In this document: positions 1 to 63,520 of the stretch, in pieces
How the letters are laid out: each line of letters starts with the position of its first letter
Position numbering within the stretch: position 1 is the stretch's first letter
DNA from: Ginglymostoma cirratum
Lineage: Eukaryota
Length of the DNA: 64,000 bases
Direction of reading: 5' to 3'
Assembly (NCBI GenBank): GCA_024137785.1
Contig: JAHRHZ010000223.1
Span: 27,621,919-27,685,918 of the forward strand
Translations under genes and position numbers: made by a program
The notes under the pieces: model-generated
The model's input: the letters and a program-made list of their open reading frames with translations, nothing else
Told to the model about the DNA's origin: nothing
Databases searched by the model: none

Positions 1-120
1 GGGTCCAGACCCGAAACGTCAGCTTTCCTGCTCCTCTGATGCTGCTTAGCCTGCTGTGTTCATCCAGCTGTACACCTTGTTGACTCAGATTCTCCAGCAT
101 CAGCAGTTCCTACTATCTCT
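1..120 (+). mobile_element. Short Penelope-derived element, family A (truncated at window edge)
   Basis: gggtccagacccgaaacgtcagctttcctgctcctctgatgctgc...cctactatctct, shared with 8 other copies in the window. Confidence 0.7.
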
Positions 121-446
121 GGATTTAGAGTTGGTGCTTTTCCTACGAGTACTGTTGTAAAATTATGAATTTGCTTTGGTTCAGATAGACTTCAATTCTG
201 CTGAAATGTATTTGTATAAACACTAATTTAAAATCCTCCTTAAATGAATGCAAATAGGCCATGTAACAGAATGTAATTTTTACTTTTTTTAAACTGTTTC
301 ATTATACTTGTTGATACATTTGAGTGATAAGCAGGTGCCAGTTACATTAATACAAGCAAAAATGGTTTAACATCTTTCACCTGAGAGTAAGCTGCTTTAT
401 GAAGACCTAAAAATAAGAGAGTAGTTCAATATTTTGTAAACCCTAG

Positions 447-580
447 CCTTCTTCAGAAAAGGATCTAGGCCCGAAACGTCAGCTTTCCTGCTCCTCTGAT
501 GCTGCTTGGCCTGCTGTGTTCATCCAGCTCTACACCTTGTTATCTCAGATTCTCCAGCATCTGCAGTTCCTATTATCTCT
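447..580 (+). mobile_element. Short Penelope-derived element, family A, with inverted 5' remnant
   Basis: ccttcttcagaaaa (reverse complement of the element head) is joined to ggatctaggcccgaaacgtcag...attatctct. Confidence 0.7.
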
Positions 581-3500
581 GGTACAAAAAATGTTTTTTT
601 AATGTGTACCTATAAGTGGAGGTAAGAAATTAATGCAATTGGAAGAACATTCTTGACACAACACAATAGGTGGCAGCTCATAATTTTGACCCAAGACGTG
701 GCTAGCTTTGTGGAAGGGGCATGACTGAGGTTAACTGAATTAGTATGAAGTACATGTACATTTTAAAAACGGTAATGACTGATTGTCACCTGTCTGAACT
801 CCTGAAAAAAAAAACTTGTCATGCAATCAATGTCAAGATGTTACACTTGTCAATTTATCGAATCAGCAAAATTCAATATTGATCACACAACCCTAAATCC
901 AGATTACTTAGGCATATAGTTAGTAAGGGCAGCTTGTACCGTAAATCTGTCATTTACCATTAAATCAAGTAACACAGTAGGATGTAATCTGATGCAACTC
1001 AGATGTTGAGTTTATCCTATTCAGAAGCTGTCAATATCATAAGAACAAGATTTGAGATGATTATGTTTCAAACTACCTCTTTTAATTCAAGGCAAAATGG
1101 AGTACGTGACCTCCGACTAGCTCTGCTTGGCATTAAACCAAAGTTGTCACTGGGACCAGGGGCCCAGATTAAATCCTGGTGAAACTCAAGTGATAGCTTT
1201 CACACCTGAAGAAAGGCAGAGACATTTGGCCTGGTTTTATGGAGGCAGGGTAAACAGCCTCAGCTGGAGAAGAAGCTGGTCTCTGAGGTACCAAAGTTCA
1301 GAGACAATATCTTTCAACAAGTTTAAAGACACTGGAAGATTTGTCCTGGGGAGGCTTGAAGGAGTCATTTCCAGAGTAGGTATTATTTCTGAAAACCAGT
1401 TCAGGGATCTCCAAAGATTGAAGTACACAAACTTAATGGACACTGGATGAAGACAATTGAGCCTGTTGGAAGCAACAAATCATTTTGAACTGGTTGTTGC
1501 AAAAACTACAATTCCGCAGGAGTACAGGGCAATATAAAAAGTATTTGCATGTGGTCCTTGGGTGTTCTAGGAAGTTAAACCTTTTCTGTAGTTTTGCGCA
1601 TGTATGAGTCGTCATGTAAGTAATACTTAGTTGATGTAGACGTTAGAACAGAAGTCTTAAAACATGAAATATTGTCAAGTGATCCTTTGAGCCAGTCACT
1701 GGGAGTTCAAAACTCTTCTTAAAAGATGCCAGTCTCCTCAGCAATCACAATGATAAACAAGTGCCAGACGGAAATATGTCTTCCTCCACCTTTTCCCTCT
1801 AAATAAGCAGACTTGAAGTGGTTAGCAGAAACAATAGCAAAAAAACCTCAAGCACTCAAACTGAAACAGATTGATTCCAGGGTGTGCGGCAGAAAGAACA
1901 TGTTGACAACAAAATCTGAATTACAGGCTGTTGCTGTCTGGTAAGAAATAATCCTGCTGAAACCAAGGCTAACACAAGTACTTGTATAAACTGCATCAAT
2001 ATAGCCACATGAGGCATCTTTAATAACTTTAAACTTGCACAATGAATAATTTTAAAAGGGTCATCCTGATCAGAGACTTCTTCGAAAAAAAAGTTTCAAG
2101 TTCTTCTCAATTTTGTAGCTTTGGCTTCAACCAGCATTTTAGGACATACATTTAATAAAGAATTCGAGTGAATGCCAACAAGTTCTAATGCTGCTTCAAG
2201 GCATGTCTGTCAACTTGAAGCAATATTATGAATAGACCAAAAATCTATTTGGGTCAACAACGGCTTGAGGGTCAGATGTTCATCACTTGGCAGACTGGTG
2301 TGCCAATTGCAACACTTGCGAAAGGCATTTAAGAAAAACTCAAATATTCCAGCAAAAAAAAATGTGATTAAAAAAATCCAATGCAAAGCAAAGAAGACAG
2401 CACTGAAATTTCACAAATTGGAAATAGTTTCTTCCTCAACACAAGAGTTTTCTCAAGAATTCTCAACAATGCTAGAGCAAAAATGGACATTGCATTTTTT
2501 TCTGTACTCTAGAGTCATGAAGAATTGACAGCTAGCACACAAATAGAGTTCTTAGGCAAAGAAACAATGTAGAAACTTAATTAGGTCTATAAAGCAGATC
2601 TGATTGCAAGGTTGAATAATAGATGTATTTTTAATCATTTGAAGCAAAATGTCAAGATTCTGTGATTTTACAAGTAGTTACATATATCCTTATAATTTCA
2701 AGTCTGAAATCTATCCAATATAGGTTCCAAGGTAATTAAGTGCCATTTCAACCAAACCTCCTACCAACCAATTCCCAATTAAAGCTTAGGAGTCTTAAAT
2801 TGTCAAAGCATTAATAACATCTGGGTGAAAATGCTCAATGGCGCACTTGGAAATCCACATATAACAATTTTTCAGGAGCTAATGCAAGGAGTACATATTA
2901 AAGTGAACAAGTAACTTTTTTTCAGAAAAGAGCCTCTTATCAAGATTATCAAACGATTACCATTTGTTCAGTGCACATAACGATGGAGAAACTTATATTT
3001 CTTATGACAGGAGTTCTGATAAAAAGATTATGAATTAGAGGTATAAAGAGGCAATATGACTTGAGAGGGAGAAATTGATCCACTTACAGCAATTTCACCA
3101 GTATTATGCTGTTTGAAATGTATCAGTGGTATCAGTTAGACTTCCACTAATGGCACCAATATCTGGTTTTGCCTTGAGATTAACACCTGTAATTTTTCCC
3201 AAGGCACTTTAAAAGTACTTTTAAAAACAATTCACTGGAACTCATACAAACTTGCTTTAGGTTATGAAATACTCCCACATATTTGCCGACTCCCTGAAAA
3301 CGTCCTTAGGCAGGAGAATGGATCTTTTTCCACTCTTCAATGTCAACTACCTCACCAACTAAATATTTATAGAGTTGCCTTCAAAAAGTAATTATAGATG
3401 CTGCATCAATCACTATTCCTTGAAAGACAATCCATATATTAAATGAACCTGCAATGTAAAAATAATTCTAACTGCCCCATTTTCCTTTGGTGACAATCAG

Positions 3501-5894: not shown

Positions 5895-6123
5895 AAATAA
5901 AACAAAGAACTGTGTGTGCAGGAGATCTGAAACAAAGGCAGAAATTGCTAGTGAAATTCAGGACTGGCATCATCTGTGGAGAGAAAACAGTAAACGTTTT
6001 GCATCCACTGACTGACTCTTCATCAGAACTCCTGAAGAAGAGTCACTGGACCAGAATCATTAACTCTGCTTTCTTCCCACAAATGCTACCAGACCTGCTA
6101 AGTTGTCAGCAATTTCTGTTATT
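5895..6123. mobile_element. Palindromic Penelope-derived element, family B
   Basis: Inverted arms meet at ctcttcatcagaactcctgaagaagag. Degenerate flanking duplication at 5878-5894 and 6124-6140. Confidence 0.65.
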
Positions 6124-8202: not shown

Positions 8203-8300
8203 CCATTTCTGATGAAGGGTTTAGGCCCGAAACGTCAAGTTTTCCTGCTCCTATGATGCTGCTTGACCTGCTGTGCTCATCCAGCCCCATGCTTGTTATC
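8203..8300 (+). mobile_element. Short Penelope-derived element, family A, intact minimal hammerhead core, 11-bp TSD
   Basis: CTGATGA-agggtttaggccc-GAAACGTC at 8209-8236. ccagataatct is duplicated at 8192-8202 and 8301-8311. Confidence 0.8.
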
Positions 8301-10079
8301 CCAGATAATCTACTGTTAGGTGTAATTCCATAATTCGCAACACTTGCTCAACAGTTTGAGTGTGCTGGTAGTTACACTAACAATCAATTTAACTTAACTA
8401 GTCAAACACATAACACAAGTTATTTAATCTTTTTAGAAATGATATACATTCATACACAGGTAACCTCTGCTCTGTAAACAAAGGAACATGTTCATGCCTC
8501 ACACATTTTTTGAACTACCAGAGGGGTTGGGAGACCCTATAATTTCCTGATGTTTTCACCATGACAATGTCTTCTTTAGAGTCAGTGCCAATCAGTTAGC
8601 ATCCCCTTCTTCAGTAGCATAAATTGTTGAGATTGTTTGAACATTCTGGTGTTTGCCCTGATGAGTGTAAATAAAAGAAGTTTCAGCGACATATTCTCTT
8701 TCCAGCAATATAACAGAGTCTTCATATTTTTGGTTAAGCTTGTTCTGAACATTCAAATTAAAAATATTGATCCATAATGACTAACAAATACACAGTCTCT
8801 GATGCAGCAAAAAAAAGGGATTGCTCAACTTGGAGCTGCAGAGTTTCTTTTTGCCAAACAATCACAGAATGAATATATCACAAAAAGAGGGTTACATTTG
8901 TCTTGTCAAACCCATGGCGCTTCACAAAAATAATTTAGCCAGACTTACTTCCCAGTCCCTTTGCTGTAGCCCTGCATTGTTTTCTCTGTAGCAGCCTATC
9001 CAATTCCATTTTGTAAACCATTAAAGTGGTTATTAAATTAAACAAAATATGATCATGATTTATTACAGTCACAGAAATGCTCTTACCATTTTCGGAAGGG
9101 TGAAATACTATATTTTGCTCAATAGCAAAATACATAATTCCAAGGATGCAATAGAAGTCAAGGCAAATTTCAGTTGTTGTTATAATAACACAGATCATCA
9201 AAATATGCCAAGTTCACACCTGAAAACATTTGATAGAGGTTTTAAAACATCTCATTATTTAAAATGTGATTTGGTAGATCCATTTTGTAATCAACAACAG
9301 GGCTGCTGAGAGAGATAATGTGAAACACAATGTTTGTGGTTTCCTAATTAAATGACTTCTGTAACAGGTGTATTCCTGCCATCAAGGAAAGAAAGATGAT
9401 TTAATGTTACTGTCAATTTTTGTTAAGAATGGGAGCACACAACGAACATTTCCATGCTGTTTGACCAACGGGATCATCTTATTAAATCCTGACCCTGTTC
9501 TCATCCAATACCTACAAGTGTGCACTTTCTAGTAAAAGGCATGGCTAGCAATCAAGATCAGAAAATACAAATTGCTCCATCCTTACTTCCTTTGCCTGAC
9601 AGGCACTCAAGGTAATTGCCACAACCCTGCTTAGACCTTGCTTGGGAGCAATTAACTCATGACCTGCAGAATGCAATTTTCCAAGTTCTTATGTTGAATG
9701 GCACAATTTCACATTAGGCATTTCTAGTATTAGGTCACAAGAACTTAAATGTTAAAAAATGCAACATTGTCATATATTCAAAACATCTCTACTATGACAT
9801 TTTTGTTCTTTGACTAAAAAGCTAATGGACAGATTGCCCCAAGTGAGGAACAGAGAATTCTTGGCGAAGTCCTCCAGTGCCCTCATGAAATATGCAATCT
9901 CTGGACAGTTTATTGTATTCACTCATTTCATATAGTAGAAATTTTATTTCTTCTTAATATTAATATACCAGTGACACTGACATGGGATTCCTATTTATTT
10001 TGGGTAGAATCAGCACGATTTCAAAGTCATATTCCTCTATCCATATACATAAGCTCATCTAAAATTTCTGCTGCCAATA

Positions 10080-11299: not shown

Positions 11300-11945
11300 A
11301 TACGTAGAACAGTGACAACCATGGTGCCATTCTAAGTTAATCCCATCTGCCTGCATATAGTTCACAACCCGCTATTCCCCACTTATTCATGTGTCCATCT
11401 AAATGCCTCTTAAACACTACTATCAAATCTGTTTCTACCACCTTCCCTGGCACTACCTACTCTGTGAAAAAAAACTTGCCTTGCACAGCTCCTTTAAACT
11501 TCCCCTGCTCACTTTAAACCTATGCCCCTAGGATTTGACACTTCCACCTGGGAAAAAGACTCCAACTATCCATGCCTGTCCTAATTTTATATACTTCTAT
11601 CAGGCCGTCCCTCAGCCTCCAACTCTCTAGCGAGAACAGTACAAGTTTATCCAACCTCTCCTTGTGGCTTATACACTCCAGTCCAGGCGGCATCCTGATG
11701 AACCTCTTCGGCACCTTCTCCAAAGCCTCCACGTCCTTTCTAAGGTGTGGCAACCAGAACTGCACACAAGACTTCAAATTTCTGAAGAAGGGTCTAGGCC
11801 CGAAACATCAGCCTTCTTGCTCCTCTGATGCTGCTTGGCCTGCTGTGTTCATCCAGCTCTACACCTTGTTATCTCAGACTCCCAATGTGGCCTGGCTCAA
11901 GTCTTATACAGCTGCAAGATGACTTGCCAATGTTCACACTCAATG
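11300..11945 (-). mobile_element. CR1/HER1 LINE 3' fragment interrupted by a family A element
   Basis: ORF remnant CVQFWLPHLRKDVEALEKVPKRFIRM...RLRDGLIEVYKI. Confidence 0.85.
11780..11875 (+). mobile_element. Short Penelope-derived element, family A, nested in CR1
   Basis: ttctgaagaagggtctaggcccgaaacatcag...ttatctc, flanked by agacttcaaat and agactcccaat (9/11 match). Confidence 0.75.
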
Positions 11946-16202: not shown

Positions 16203-16393
16203 ACAGTGTGGAGCTGGAGGAGCACAGCAGGCCAGGCAGCATCAGAGGAGCAGGAAAGTTGATGTTTCGGGGCCATTTCTGAAGAAGTGTCCCGACCCAA
16301 AATGTCAGCTTTCCTGCTCCTCTGATGCTGCCTGTGCTCCTCCAGCTCCACACTGTTATCTCTGACTCCAGCATCGGCAGTTCTTACTATCTC
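16203..16393. mobile_element. Head-to-head palindromic family A element
   Basis: Minus arm 16203-16275 and plus arm 16276-16393. Both arms share the variant ggagctggaggagcac / gtgctcctccagctcc. Confidence 0.75.
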
Positions 16394-18261
16394 TGGCCTT
16401 ATTTTCATGCTCACTTCCCGTATGGGCCTGTACATGGATAAATCCAAGTTCATTTTAATTCAGCATTAAAACTAATTCACTTTAAATTGTCACAAACTTT
16501 CAAAACAGAGAAAACAGGCATTAGTCATTTAAACACAAATAGAAGCAATGTTTTGAAGCATCATCATGTTGGACTCAAAACGTTAACTTTGTTACTCTCT
16601 CCACAGATACTGCCAGGCCTGCTCAGCTTCTCCAGCATATTGTGAATTAATAAAAATAATGTTAAATGGAATTCAGAATTAGATGTTTAAGATGAGTGAG
16701 AAGTGAGAATAACCAGTGTGGAAGCAATTTTATCTTACAAAATGAATAAAAGGAACGCAAATTCATATTTTGTGAACATTATCAATACATTCATAGGGAA
16801 CTGTTAGTGATCTTGCTTTAATAGATTTTCCTTCATATCGATGTCAATGCTGTACAAATTGTACTTCTACTTCAATAAAATCAAACAGAACATGTCCTGG
16901 AGTCCAGCCTCACTGCCTGAAATGTTCACAGGACAGGACTGGTTTACTCTGTGCTGGTATGAGAATACATTGTACAGCCCGGGGATCTTAAAACATACAA
17001 TATTATAAAAGTCCAAAGCAGCTTTAAAAAGGAAACTATCCTAAAGAATTGTGCTAGAACTGGTAGATATTGTTTGCAAATAATGGGTGCCCCATTTAAG
17101 ATGTCAAGACTTCTTTTCCCCTGAGTTTTGAGTGTCATTGGAATTCTCTTCATAAAAAGCAGTGGAGGAAGGGCACTGAATTTTAAGGCAAAGGTGGATG
17201 GGGATTCTTAGCTAACAAGGGAGCAGGAGGAAAAGTGTGGAGTTGGGCCCATGATCTGATCAGACACGATTGCGACAAATGGTGGGAGCATTCTCAAGGG
17301 GCCAAATAGGGTACATCTGCTCCTACTATCTTATGTTTACATGCATGAAATACAATGACTAAAACTGATCTTGAGCCAAAGCGGAAGTTGACAGCATTTA
17401 ACAGTATGGCAAAGCAGGCAGGTTGAAACAGCATGAACTGAGAAAATGATAACCTGCTCGAGGAATTGGAAGTGAGAGTGGCTGGAAAGGATTACTAATT
17501 TTCAAGAACACAACAGGTTGAAAGTGGGCTTTTTGGATAAAGGGCAAGATGAAAGTGAAGGGGACAGCGTGTTATTTAGTCTGCACAGTGGACTGGAAGG
17601 TAAGCTGTGGTATCTTTAGTTTAGTGGGAAAGAGAGTCAACAGAATAGGGGCTCAAGGACAGGATGCACTCAAGAGAGGGATGAAAGGAAAATAGGGGTG
17701 AAACTACGGGAGGATGCAGGTTCAGCGCAATGGTGGGGGAACAATTGGACCATGAGATTTAGGAGCAGAATTAGGCTATTCAGCCCATTGAGTCTGCTCC
17801 ACCATTCAATGATGTTTCACAACCCCATTCTCTTGCTTCTACCAATAACCTTTAACCCCTTTTCTAATCAAGAACCTATTTATATCGGCCTTAAATATAC
17901 TCACAGCCTTCAATGACAATAAATTCCACAGATTCAACAACCTCTGGTGAAAAAAAATTCCTCCTTATCTCAATTCTAAAAGGTCCTGATCTAGCAATGC
18001 CTCAATTTTAAAAAGAAAACTTTCATCCTCATTCTTTAAATCACTCCACTGCCTTATATGCATTCCCATATATGCAGCCTCCTTCAGTCCTAGAACTCTG
18101 GAGCATTCTGCAATCCTTCAGTTGCGGCACCTTGTGCAATCCCAATTTCCTCAGCCCCTCCACTAACGGCTGCACCTTCAGTGGTCAAGATCTCAATGCT
18201 GTGGATTTTTCTCCAAAAACTTCTCCACCTCTTGCTTTCTCTCTGGGATCATACAATCCCT

Positions 18262-22599: not shown

Positions 22600-22697
22600 G
22601 AGATAACAAGGTGTAGAGCTGGATGAACACAGCAGGCCAAGCAGCATCAGAGGAGCAGGAAAGCCGACATTTCAGGTCTAGACCCTTCTTCAGAAAA
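22600..22697 (-). mobile_element. Short Penelope-derived element, family A (sense to ZFPM1 pre-mRNA)
   Basis: Minus strand ttttctgaagaagggtctagacctgaaatgtcggctttcctgctcc... Confidence 0.75.
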
Positions 22698-45619: not shown

Positions 45620-46020
45620 TTTCACCACCCTCCATGTCTATTACCTACTCCCATAACCGCAGGTCCGGTTATGAAATGGGTTGCTTTTAACACAGCCAAC
45701 CCAGTTTCACCTATTCACAGCACCATTATCACATATACAGGTTCTCGTCTCCTGTAGCTTATTATCAATAACCCAATTGTCTGCCTACTTTTTGTCGTCT
45801 CTGGGCTCTGCCTCCACCCATCCACTCCTTACTTTACCATCCCCCACCCTTTCATCAGCGTAAACACCAACATTTCAGAACTGAAAGCAGCTTGGAAAGG
45901 TCCCTGGACTCGAGATACTCACTCTGCTTTCTCCCCACAGGGGCTGCCACACAAGTTTCTCCAGCAATTTCTATTCTTGTTTTTTTCTGGTCTCCAGCAT
46001 CCACAGTTCTTGGTTTTATC
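45620..46020 (+). mobile_element. Longer Penelope-type 3' terminal region, family B
   Basis: A pyrimidine-rich segment runs into ...ggtccctggactcgagatactcactctgctttctccccacaggggctgcc...ctccagcatccacagttcttggtttta, homologous to 5895-6123. Confidence 0.55.
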
Positions 46021-46584
46021 TTCTCAAAAGTATCTTGATCTTTTTTGTTGGGTAATTTCTTCTTGGCCATATCCTGAAGTTGTGGACATTGTCCATCTCA
46101 GCTCAGTAGTGGCTTCCCTGGAGTCCTGTGCAACTCATCTTCAATCCTTGCAGGCAAACATCATCATCTGCCAGACGAAGTACGTACATTCTCTACTTAA
46201 ACTTGTTGATTAAGCTGGATGCTTGTAACTGCCCTCTTTGGTTGCTTTACTGCTAAATCCAGTTGTGCTACTTAAGGATTGCCACTTACTTGGTATGATC
46301 ACTGTCACTGGTGTTGATGATGCTTCACATTACAAAAACAGACTTGTATTTGTTGAATAGGATATTTACTCAATGTGAAAGTTTAGTTTCAAATAAAAAG
46401 AAATCTAGCTCCTGGGGCTTTACTGTTTGCCTGATTTAAATTTGGTACGGTATTAATGGCTAAATAATGATTCGTTCAAACTATCAAAATAGCTGTTCAA
46501 ATTTTCCAACAACTTTGAAACATGACAGACAACGATGAAAAACAAAATCATTTGACAATTACAGCAATGTGCAATTATACAACA

Positions 46585-53589: not shown

Positions 53590-55250
53590 TTTGAACATAA
53601 AGCAGGTAGGCCATTCAGTCTCTTGGGCCTGCTCTGCCTTTCAATAAGATCATAGCTGATCTGATTGAAATCTCAAATTCACATTCCTACCTAATCCAAA
53701 TAACATTTCCCTTGAACCTTATTCCACAAGAATCTAGCCACCTCTATTTTAAGAATAGTTAAAAACTGCTTCCACCACCTTTTTGGGAACAAAGTTCTAA
53801 AGGTTCACAACCCTTTAAGAATACAAATCACCTGTCTGGTTTAAATGGATTTTTAAAGAGTGACCTCATAGTTCTCGATTCTCCTATAAGATGAGATATC
53901 CTCTCCACATCTTATTTGTCAAGACTCCTCAGGATCTTATTCAATCAAGTTGACTCATTCTTCTGAATTCCAGCAAATTTAGCCGAGCCTGTCCAAACTT
54001 TCACCACCAGGAAACCCACCCATTCCAGGTATTTGTCTCACAAACCTTCTCTGAACGGCCTCCAAAACATTCACATCTTTCCTTAAAAAAGGAAATAGTA
54101 CTTCAGATGTGGTCTCACTAGTGCCCGTATAACTGAAGCAAAAGTGCTCTACCCTCTGCATTCAATTCCTCTTGTGCTAAATGAGAGCATTCTATGAGTT
54201 TTCCTGAACACTAACTATACATGCTTTACCTAATCCCGACACTAACACTTGTGATTCATGCACTAATACATCAAGATCCTTCTGCATTCCTCTCAATTTA
54301 CATAATATCCTTTACTTGCTGCCAAAATGGACAATTTCATGTTTTCCCACATTATGCATTTGCTAGAATTCTGCCCACTCACTTCACCCATATATACCTT
54401 TTTGTGACCTGTATGTCTTTGTTACTATTTTCTTTACCACATATCTTTGTGTTATCCTCAAATTTGCCAACAATACCTTCCTAGCATTCATACAAGCTAT
54501 TTATATAAACTGTAAAAAGTTGAGGTCCCAGCACCAATCCCTGTGGCACACCACACATTACTTTTAAACAAATAAAAAAGTACTGCAGATGTTGTAAATT
54601 ACCGAACTTGAAATGTTAACTCTGATTTTTCTTCACAGATGCTGCCAGACCTGCTCAGCTTTCACAGCAACTCTGTTTTTGTCCTTTATTACTTTTAGGC
54701 AACTTGGAAAAGACCCATAAATACATATTCTCTATTTCCTGTTAGGAAATCTTCTCTGAATGGTAAAATGCTACCAACTAAACCCCATGAGCTTTTAATT
54801 TCCACAGTAATCTTCAATGTAGCATGTACATTCATCATCCACATTGCATGTTACTTCCTCAAGGTAATCCCAATTCATTGTTGAAACAAAATTTTTCCTT
54901 GTCAAAATCATGTTGACTCTGCCTGATTTCCTTGAACATTTCCAAGTGCCTTGCTATAACTTCTTAATAATTTCTAGCATTTTGGCCATGAAAGATGTTA
55001 ATCTAACTAGTAGTTTCCTGCCTTTAATCTCCCTCCCTTTCTGAATAACAGAGTTATATTTACATTTTCCCAATCTAGTGAGACTTTCCCCAAATCAAGG
55101 GAGTATTAGGAAATTAAAACTAATGTATCAATTCTCTCACTAGCCACTTCTTTCAAGACCCAAAGAATGAACAGGACCTGGGTACTTATCAGCCCACATC
55201 TTCAACAATTTGCTCAATATCACTTCTTGGATTATTGTGATTTCCCCCTC
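53590..55250 (-). mobile_element. Old CR1 LINE fragment with a nested family B element
   Basis: LRKDVNVLEAVQRRFVRQIPGM; upstream SGVPQGLVLGPQLF-like motif. Confidence 0.8.
54567..54687. mobile_element. Family B Penelope-derived element with 10-bp TSD
   Basis: attactttta at 54557-54566 and 54688-54697 flanks tactgcagatgttg...gaaatgttaactctg...cacagatgctgccagacctgctcagc. Confidence 0.7.
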
Positions 55251-61235: not shown

Positions 61236-61530
61236 CCGCGCCACCTGTATCCCCCTTCCCACGCGGAGTTGAAGGAGTCTTCTGAGGGAAGTGAGCAACT
61301 GGATACTCTGTGCATCTTAGCTTCGACCGGTTTGTTCATGTTCACGAGTACCACCTTCCACCTTCCACCCTCCCTCCCCGCCGCCCCAAGGTCAGTCAGC
61401 TTTTGAAAGTTTGGCAACTTTTTCAAAACCAAAAACACTTTGTTGCAAGATGCCACACCATTTCGAGTCCAGTCTTAACGTTTCCCCAGCACATTTCGTT
61501 TATACGGGATTGCATTGCAACTACTCAGCA

Positions 61531-61627
61531 AAGGGTTTAGGCCCGAAACGTCAAGTTTTCCTGCTCCTATGATGCTGCTTGACCTGCTGTGTTCATCCAG
61601 CCCCATGCTTGTTAACCGAGATTTTCT
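61531..61627 (+). mobile_element. Short Penelope-derived element, family A
   Basis: Nearly identical to 8215-8298 but lacks the CTGATG of the core. Confidence 0.75.
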
Positions 61628-61914: not shown

Positions 61915-62498
61915 TTAAATCAGCCAAAGCCGTACAACAAAGAAAACTAATAAACTTTTCACTGTCTATTCAACCATGACTTCGACAGGCAGAAGTGCAG
62001 GAATCGAAAATAGCTATTCAGCAGGCAATCCTGGATTTGGATTTCCGCCAGCATACATTGTAGCATGGACTGTACAGCATCGCTAGGCATCCCTATTTCA
62101 TCCGAATGAACTTTGACTTCGAATATCATTGATGCGTGCCTGCTTCCATTGTAACTGCAATGTTCTGTGGACACTGCAATGCACCATGGGATACTGGCTT
62201 TGACACAGCTGGTGGATCTGAAAAGGAATGCAATCGACATTCAGCGAATGTTTGGTAGATATTAAGCACAATACAGCCATCGATATGATCGTCCTGCATA
62301 TTTAGAAATTGCACTTGAACAACTGTCCACATCAAAGGCAGGACAATGGCACTTATCACAACAGTTAAATGATGTCTAGCTCGTGTGTCCTATTCATGAA
62401 TATCTGACATGTGGATAATGGTGTACTGTGCCATCAACAAACATAGTTTGGCATGAACTGGTATCTGTCATCAAAAGGCAACATGATTACAAAGGGAT

Positions 62499-62692
62499 AG
62501 TAGGAACTGCAGATGCTGGAGAATCTGAGATAATAAGGTGTAGAGCTGGATGAACACAGCAGGCTAAGCAGCATCAGAGGAGCAGGAAGGCTGACGTTTC
62601 GGGTCTGGACCCTTCTTCAGAAAAACCCTTCTGAAGAAGGGTCCAGACCCGAAATGTCAGCTTTCCTGCACCTCTGATGTTGCCTGGCCTGC
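62499..62692. mobile_element. Head-to-head palindromic family A element with 17-bp TSD
   Basis: catgattacaaagggat at 62482-62498 and 62693-62709. The arms meet at ccttcttcagaaaaacccttctgaagaagg. Confidence 0.85.
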
Positions 62693-63520
62693 CATGATTA
62701 CAAAGGGATCTTGATCAAATGGGTCAATTGGCTGAAAAATGTCAGATGGAGTTCAATCTGGATAAATACGAGGTATTTCATTTTGGTACAACAAACAAGG
62801 GTAGGGCTTATACAATTAATGGGAGGGCCTTGGGTAGATTTGTAGAACAGAGGACCTAGGAATGCAGGTACATAATTCTTTAAAGTTTGTGTCACATATA
62901 GACAGGATGATTAAAAGGTGTTTGGCACGCTTGCCTTTATCGCTCAATCCTTTCAGTATAGGAGTTGGAAAGTCTTGTTGAGGTTGTACAGGACATTGAT
63001 GAGGCCTCTTCTGGAATACTGTATCCAGTTCTGGTTGCCCAGTTATAGGAAGAATATTATCAGGCTAGAGAGGCTCAGAAGGGATTTACCAGCATGTTAC
63101 TGGGTATGGAAGGTTTGAGTTATAAGGAAAGGCTGGATAAGCTGGGACTTTTTTTCACGATAGAAGTTTATAAAATAATGAGAGGTATAATACAGTTGAT
63201 GGTAGTTGTCTTTTCCCTAACATGGGGAATTTCAAGATTAGGGGGCACATTTTAAGGTGAGAAGAGAGAGATTTATAAAGGACGAGGCAAATTTTTTACA
63301 CAGAGGGTGTTTCGCGTTTGGAGTGAATTTCCTGTGGAAGTGGTGGATGTGGGTACAATTCCAATGTTTAAAAGACATTTGGATGGCCATATGAATAGGA
63401 AAGGTTTAGAGGGATATGAGCCAGGAGCAAACAGGTGGGACCAATTTAGTTTGGGATTATGTTTGGCATAGACTGGCTTAACCGAAAGGTCTGTTTCTGT
63501 GCTGTATGACTCAATGATTT
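62693..63520 (+). mobile_element. CR1/HER1 LINE 3' fragment
   Basis: LQRDLDQMGQ...MEFN; FGTLAFIAQSFQYRSWKVLLRLYRTLMRPLLEYCIQFWLPSYRKNIIRLER. Confidence 0.9.

Follow-up and report, generated by a model that had tools for sequence, protein, structure and literature searches.

EN+ Penelope-like elements (PLEs) integrate as units that combine an inverted pLTR, a tail of 30–40 bp on one end and a target-site duplication (TSD), as set out in the available parts of PMC3846280 and PMC8557442. Pen2a_Av of Adineta vaga (PMC3846280), the general scheme of PMC8557442 and Penelope of Drosophila virilis (PMC2377424) share head-to-head ends, tail and TSD, and the accessible text of the same three sources adds variable 5′ truncation and a hammerhead ribozyme located in the pLTR. 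The origin of the inverted ends and of the one-sided tail is called undefined in the accessible portion of PMC8557442. The Poseidon element of Anolis carolinensis (PAc), a predicted dimer, introduces cuts into both strands and extends each of them, with two internal reverse transcription (RT) starts that span the tail; its ribozyme needs protein and is dispensable for insertion in vitro, and the authors refer to “additional steps yet to be validated” (PMC11167929). Opposite-strand hammerhead motif pairs 100–700 bp apart, together with many solo motifs from truncated PLEs, were noted in 2014 (PMC4209133, available part). Non-LTR retrozymes, as presented in the available text of PMC7229834 and bioRxiv 10.64898/2026.07.22.740005, are small, non-coding units with a type-I hammerhead that derive from PLE ends; they form head-to-tail repeats with the ribozymes on one strand, from which a circular monomer is released.

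The window, i.e., the whole 64-kb stretch of DNA analysed here, contains at 62482..62709 a unit that corresponds to the EN+ PLE insertions in its RT/GIY-YIG terminus, its inverted 5′-truncated copy, its one-sided tail and its TSD of variable length. It differs from the described units in that the two arms end at the ribozyme and leave no ORF sequence, in a TSD of 13–17 bp versus the 8–10 bp given for A. vaga in the available part of PMC3846280, and in a very high copy number. Like the unit studied here, PAc has its hammerhead at the unit front, and its RT starts lie about 100–130 nt downstream and define the tail (PMC11167929); inverted stubs are not treated for PAc in the main text of that paper. 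The resemblance to retrozymes in size, coding content and ribozyme type does not extend to their layout, since the two hammerheads lie on opposite strands here, there is no tandem head-to-tail arrangement, and no monomer is excisable. We are confident that the unit represents one insertion of two short head-to-head hammerhead ends of an abundant Neptune-type PLE. It was likely made by the enzyme of the parent element itself and is likely inert, being unable to copy itself further. The features of the insertion are as follows, with arm positions counted from the hammerhead C3 as +1:

62482..62498, plus strand: left TSD, 17 bp, identical to the right copy
62499..62620, minus strand: long arm, positions 1–122, older “A-type” subfamily
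62499..62526, minus strand: tail, arm positions ~95–122, an optional ~32-nt extension on one side of such insertions
62593..62620, minus strand: minimal type-I hammerhead core with helix II; the cut is predicted to fall between 62593 and 62592
62621..62630, no strand: junction spacer, 10 nt, an A-run plus a short piece copying arm positions ~6–11
62631..62692, plus strand: short arm, positions 1–62, far end cut short (usual end ~94)
62631..62658, plus strand: second hammerhead core, with a C-to-T change at 62655 (helix III, CpG site)
62693..62709, plus strand: right TSD, from direct-repeat comparison
62696..63300, plus strand: 5′-truncated, presumably CR1-type LINE fragment of high copy number, end of the RT region, insertion target

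The original prediction had described a perfect 17-bp TSD and a single insertion event, and both are borne out: the direct repeats at 62482–62498 and 62693–62709 are identical, and one TSD encloses both arms. Fourteen of the 17 nt continue rightward into the LINE fragment, which we take from its motif to be of CR1 type, and LINE homologues match through the TSD. In the left copy, these last 14 nt represent the interrupted LINE sequence, while the last 3 nt are also compatible with the element end; the insertion point lies 14 nt inside the truncated LINE. When the element and one repeat are taken out, a continuous LINE match is restored (TSD 62485–62498, LINE 62696–63300), which lends independent support to a true TSD. 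Contigs of a second organism show 24 differences over 518 nt (4–5% in the flank, window positions 62000–62519) and reach 20 nt into the element; on this alignment, the insertion looks common to both organisms. No empty site was seen in the contigs of the second organism compared.

Between the TSDs, the unit measures 194 bp and consists of a 122-nt minus arm, a 10-nt spacer and a 62-nt plus arm; in full-length copies, the tail continues into the ORF start. The inverted arms (62559–62622 and 62629–62692) are 64 nt long and 91% complementary. Hence, the palindrome of ~190 bp originally described has real head-to-head inverted arms, yet it is asymmetric, with only 134 of the 194 bp being palindromic. 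Its predicted fold is far beyond chance (z = −19 and −13 versus 200 shuffles). In the searched genome, none of the other comparable junctions, 1,627 in all, repeats that of this copy, whose two arms differ at the polymorphic sites 32 and 54.

Two hammerhead cores, one per strand, read as had been proposed, and they are of the minimal type-I form, with the CUGANGA...GAAA..UH core, helix II and a loop-less palindromic helix III. The CUGANGA motif, the extra base before helix II, the G-C pair at the base and the loop-less palindromic helix III are shared with the metazoan PLE hammerheads of PMC4209133 (available part), from which the present ribozyme, known here from its sequence, differs by a helix II of 4 bp and a helix I of only 2 bp in the A-type subfamily. 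Helix I has 2 bp in both window arms, below a threshold of at least 3 bp, and 3–4 bp in the younger subfamily. An Rfam search of the window at the gathering score gave no match. The A/T marker that separates the subfamilies sits on the free N7 of the hammerhead, while position 17 varies between G and A and pairs with U either way; two other hammerhead families have the same core with different stems. Given the position of the marker on N7, the conserved pairing of helix II and a core kept elsewhere, the hammerhead was likely under selection in the source elements.

In the predicted hairpin, both cores are fully paired on either strand (−131 or −118 kcal/mol). A transcript through the window copy is, thus, predicted to form one hairpin of ~64 bp that would bury the ribozyme and leave it silent. 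Cleavage as a dimer, which the original prediction had invoked, is impossible within one transcript of this unit, since each core is on a different strand and the two should, by prediction, pair with each other.

The parent element was searched for in the genome of 4.36 Gb with PF01541 (GIY-YIG), which yielded 22,577 first-look candidates; 150 of these were scored and 30 loci examined. In 29 of the 30 loci, the arm lies downstream of GIY-YIG on the same strand, ending at 90–101 in 15 cases, at 127–130 in 12 and elsewhere in two. The suspected Penelope origin and the autonomous RT plus GIY-YIG partner that remained to be located are, hence, both in evidence: the arm is the terminus of the ORF-bearing element. 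Among 30 loci chosen by ORF start, 21 have the arm directly upstream of the ORF, and the unit measures ~3.5 kb from arm to arm. Being placed both downstream of GIY-YIG and upstream of the ORF, the arm both closes every inserted copy and forms the front of the unit. At four loci (L253, L255, L263, L273), 3′ UTR and arm precede the ORF start, which is the arrangement of a partial-tandem pLTR. The parent ORF matches GIY-YIG above and RVT_1 below the cut-off, and contains the motifs DKG, CX4CxxC and GIY-CxxC-YIG. From the motif, we provisionally place the parent with Neptune rather than Nematis. A CX2-5CxxC motif in the RT-EN linker and two cysteines between GIY and YIG are features of Neptune/Nematis according to the accessible part of PMC8557442, and both are present in the parent ORF. 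PAc, in contrast, is a member of the Penelope/Poseidon clade whose ORF begins within the ribozyme (PMC11167929); in the shark parent, with its Neptune/Nematis CX4CxxC linker motif, the long ORF has its first in-frame ATG ~40 nt past the tail.

The top GIY-YIG matches are mostly of the younger “T-type”, while the window copy is of the older A-type; A-type arms also terminate long copies (L059, L100, L119, L139). One parent copy (L352:1481-4423) has a stop-free frame of 981 codons with an internal deletion and a few masked bases, and frames of 500–800 codons occur in several others. These long stop-free frames indicate that the family was active fairly recently. In most of the long copies L201–L214, a second Pro/Ser/Thr-rich stop-free frame of 330–440 codons overlaps the RT thumb and the endonuclease, probably owing to a preference for C-rich codons. 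Copies of 0.5–0.7 kb with internal deletions or interruptions (L148:2020-2460, L247, L249, L254, L257, L270) keep the front arm and the ORF start and have another arm at the end; they are possible short non-autonomous derivatives, unlike the palindromes. A 3′ UTR pyrimidine tract at L038 ends in CAG at about −27 and resembles a 3′ splice site; a stretch of 6–7 nt there, ~30 nt upstream of the core, is complementary to the core start. In D. virilis Penelope, an intron ends at its hammerhead (PMC4209133, available part). A single-sequence fold of the parent ORF reached a pLDDT of 36, and a sequence search of the PDB gave a single weak, irrelevant match.

The abundance of the family was estimated from 80 random stretches of 10 kb, of which 387 of 800 kb were readable. 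These contained 62 arms and 12 head-to-head pairs, nine of them short and three with arms of 0.4–1.5 kb, which, with a wide error, extrapolates to some 7e5 arms and 1e5 short palindromes. High copy number and a preferred length, both anticipated earlier, are found in these roughly 1e5 short palindromes with a preferred size of ~230 bp. Exact core matches number at least 52,595, and the family makes up about 4% of the sampled DNA; scans for ribozymes or hairpins in such genomes will, therefore, keep finding it. Exact junction patterns were counted genome-wide as 1,627 A/A, 1,014 T/T and 164 mixed (164 of 2,805), with 0 in the reversed controls. Long head-to-head copies (two in L113, and L127, L201, L202 and L206) have one end at ~92–96 and the other at ~128–131.

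For a closer comparison, the first 98 in contig order of the 2,641 A/A and T/T junctions were taken; 32 loci with masked bases were set aside, leaving 66 unmasked palindromes, and the comparisons of subfamily markers and arm differences excluded ten loci that belonged to another family, were duplicated or had their centre misplaced. A TSD flanks 45 of the 66, measuring 13–16 bp in 39, as opposed to 0/66 with mismatched flanks. The ends fall into distinct classes: tail plus short (42), tail plus intermediate (4), tail plus cut short (14, the class of the window copy), short plus cut short (4) and short plus short (2), while tail plus tail is absent. Hence, the tail of ~32 nt is found on one arm in 60/66 and on both arms in 0/66. 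Spacers are diverse, with 77 distinct forms among the 98 junctions, the commonest of which (eight copies) simply joins two template ends and occurs in both subfamilies. In many cases, the junction spacer contains a short stretch templated by the arm start, or additional runs of A or T, as is expected from snap-back synthesis or slippage at the template end. Long and short arms show no allele bias at 12 polymorphic sites; arm-specific alleles, as suggested by L001 and L002, are an artefact of using the window copy as query and are absent from the pattern-picked set.

Copies of this family have a preferred 5′ stop. Among 57 5′ boundaries from the random sample and the window, 24 fall at −8..+3 and none at −19..−9, with 11 further upstream and 22 inside the arm. 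Genome-wide, the next 12 nt upstream are kept in 18,788 of the 52,595 exact cores (36%, a value lowered by the variable length of the upstream C-run, which is exact by eye in 21/29 ORF loci), compared with 35,337 of 43,394 (81%) for a control step of 11 nt in the 3′ UTR. With the variable C-run taken into account, roughly half of the copies end in the 12 nt immediately upstream of the core. A footprint of ribozyme cleavage at position 28–33 found no support, with 5/57 5′ boundaries at 27–36 and far ends that do not pile up; cleavage does not make the stop, as the latter lies 30 nt upstream of the ribozyme cut.

Regarding the cause of the stop near −4, an RNA that begins there is our leading, albeit tentative, explanation. 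The bases at positions −6 to +1 presumably fit the Initiator consensus YYANWYY. Transcription from inside the pLTR is described for D. virilis Penelope (PMC2377424, available part). The reading is weakened by the base composition at −5 (C 22, A 5, G 2, T 1), where no cap-derived G was seen, and 4/30 ORF-start loci that extend past −4 count against it. In the front arm of near-full-length copies, 7/30 stop at −4..+4 and 4/30 run on; front and rear arms have similar stop rates, which a pause or a nick would equally give. Pausing of the RT or nicking by the endonuclease at this point is a somewhat weaker candidate, and some other cause is rather unlikely. In the parent end, the stretch around −4 also includes ATT, the motif cut best by PAc (PMC11167929).

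As to the joining of the two arms, we lean on balance towards a mechanism in which the RT-endonuclease would make a staggered cut and reverse transcription would be primed on both target strands. Synthesis would begin at internal sites of the RNA, at +126 for one side and at +94 or before for the other. Near −4, both cDNAs would come to an end and be linked through short snap-back or A-run fillers. In its more specific form, asymmetric twin priming, an enzyme dimer would use two RNA molecules, one at the tail site and one at an inner site, each copied until run-off just upstream of the hammerhead, followed by joining of the cDNA ends. We put this version forward tentatively; it would follow naturally from the two-strand extension, the two internal starts and the predicted dimer of PAc (PMC11167929). 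The preferred stop, the tail asymmetry and the hybrid arms of a minority of copies suggest that a defined end of the template is where two cDNAs become joined.

Whether one template suffices was addressed in 74 copies with both arms of at least 35 nt. Within copies, the arms differ in 74/695 polymorphic cells (10.6%) versus 186/3,089 invariant cells (6.0%; p = 4e-5), although faster mutation of polymorphic sites may inflate the former figure. Of 62 copies with at least six scorable sites, 11 switch at two or more sites and four at three or more, against about 4 and 0.5, respectively, expected from background by a hand estimate. Linked subfamily markers switch in phase in L165, L176, L179, L180 and L193, and out of phase in L194. 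The in-phase switches imply that some palindromes need two templates.

This bears directly on the main rival, namely fold-back of a single cDNA, which would prime itself at its 3′ end, copy itself towards the target and stop at or before +94, as proposed for such palindromes in the accessible text of PMC3846280. Copies that switch several subfamily markers in phase cannot derive from one template, and long copies join arms of very different 5′ extent with no hairpin between them. Most arms are concordant, as fold-back would have it: within copies they differ less than random pairs (12% versus 35% in the A-picked and 9% versus 16% in the T-picked set), and rare variants are common to both arms in 15/201. 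Similar arms and common rare variants fit one-template fold-back and two templates from one source equally well, and most palindromes cannot separate two RNAs of one source from fold-back. Further points in its favour are the junctions, which often contain short snap-back copies of the arm start, and the far ends: truncation is restricted to the untailed arm (18/66) and is spread over 18–83, unlike what fixed RT starts predict. Taken together, we regard fold-back as the less likely route, although it deserves serious attention.

The original prediction had favoured a protein-free, ribozyme-bearing unit, i.e., a Penelope SINE or retrozyme analogue, which would be transcribed and re-inserted as a whole palindrome. 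The preferred size of ~230 bp, together with a copy number of roughly 1e5 (nine short pairs per 387 kb), would suit such a unit, far-end truncation of one arm fits a cDNA stopping on a palindromic RNA, and non-autonomous PLE derivatives are known from the available text of PMC8557442 and bioRxiv 10.64898/2026.07.22.740005. A self-copying palindrome predicts the opposite of what is found for spacer diversity, uniqueness of the window junction and allele frequencies, which speaks against a separate family: the window junction is unique, 77 of the 98 spacers are distinct, recurrent spacers are simple joins of the template end in both subfamilies, and arm-specific alleles are missing. Likewise, no master with a fixed internal structure, as in a SINE-like family, emerged from the 98 junctions of the 2,641 A/A and T/T set. 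Moreover, the short palindromes form a continuum with ORF-bearing copies, the ribozyme cores are predicted to be buried, and RNA of the anole element must reach well past the RT start at which the inserted copies end (PMC11167929). With the arm being the terminus of the ORF element, long copies having the same layout and junctions that are nearly all different, the separate amplifying unit is very improbable. That the copies might be random truncated ends of a Penelope family had been named as a reason to give up this view; truncated ends of such a family they are, but the truncation is not random. Finally, short inverted arms and direct repeats could also stem from a MITE, from another DNA transposon whose terminal inverted repeats are long, or from a pair of adjacent independent insertions, but these readings are refuted by unequal arms, a variable TSD of 13–17 bp that encloses both arms once, and arms that end an RT-encoding element.

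Two-strand priming with joining of the cDNAs near −4, thus, continues to be the reading that we favour. Inverted end, one-sided tail, TSD and opposite-strand motif pairs are already known; the stop near the core in roughly half of the copies, the absence of two-tailed palindromes (0/66) and the minority with arms of different subfamilies go beyond the cited papers. Subscription journals, Repbase Reports and supplements aside (inverted copies may appear in the supplement of PMC11167929), the open literature searched contained no account of palindromic Penelope stubs in sharks, nor any of twin priming in PLEs. The single window stub is of little importance, as one of roughly 1e5 similar ones. 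The stub population, in contrast, bears on how PLEs make inverted ends and a one-sided tail, and the missing tail-plus-tail class, the hybrid arms and the sharp −4 stop are constraints on any model of PLE insertion. If twin priming holds true, the ~1e5 stubs would be a natural record of the reaction, and it would be clear why, throughout the class, the ends are inverted and the tail is one-sided.

In the window, ten pieces of the same family are present, including five single arms or pieces absent from the original prediction. They are listed here together with a pair from a different family:

1..122, plus strand: tailed arm, same family, cut by the window edge
447..582, plus strand: tailed arm with a 10-nt inverted stub, same family
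5895..6123, no strand: decayed head-to-head pair of a different hammerhead family, “B”
8203..8306, plus strand: single T-type arm (−5 to ~94), same family, with an 11–13-bp direct repeat
11778..11881, plus strand: single arm (−3 to ~97), same family
16203..16396, no strand: head-to-head pair (18–82 / −5–127), same family, older subfamily
22600..22697, minus strand: single arm (−3 to 94), same family
61525..61626, plus strand: single T-type arm (7 to 90), same family

The recurrences reported earlier fare differently. The one at 16203–16393 is indeed a head-to-head pair of the same family, but of the older subfamily and with no TSD found. That at 5895–6123 belongs to another hammerhead family, with arms that are 69% alike and no BLAST match to the window element; at neither site was a direct repeat of at least 10 nt found. 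The supposed remnant at 447–460 turned out to be a nearly whole arm at 452–582 behind a 10-nt inverted stub. Among the loci retrieved from this genome, family “B” gave 80 BLAST matches and no parent element. In its window copies (5895–6123, 45924–46022, 54616–54686 and 16570–16636), helix I measures 4 bp and helix II differs from that of the present element. Several random loci contain a third hammerhead family, “C”, in which helix II is longer and helix I has about 5 bp.
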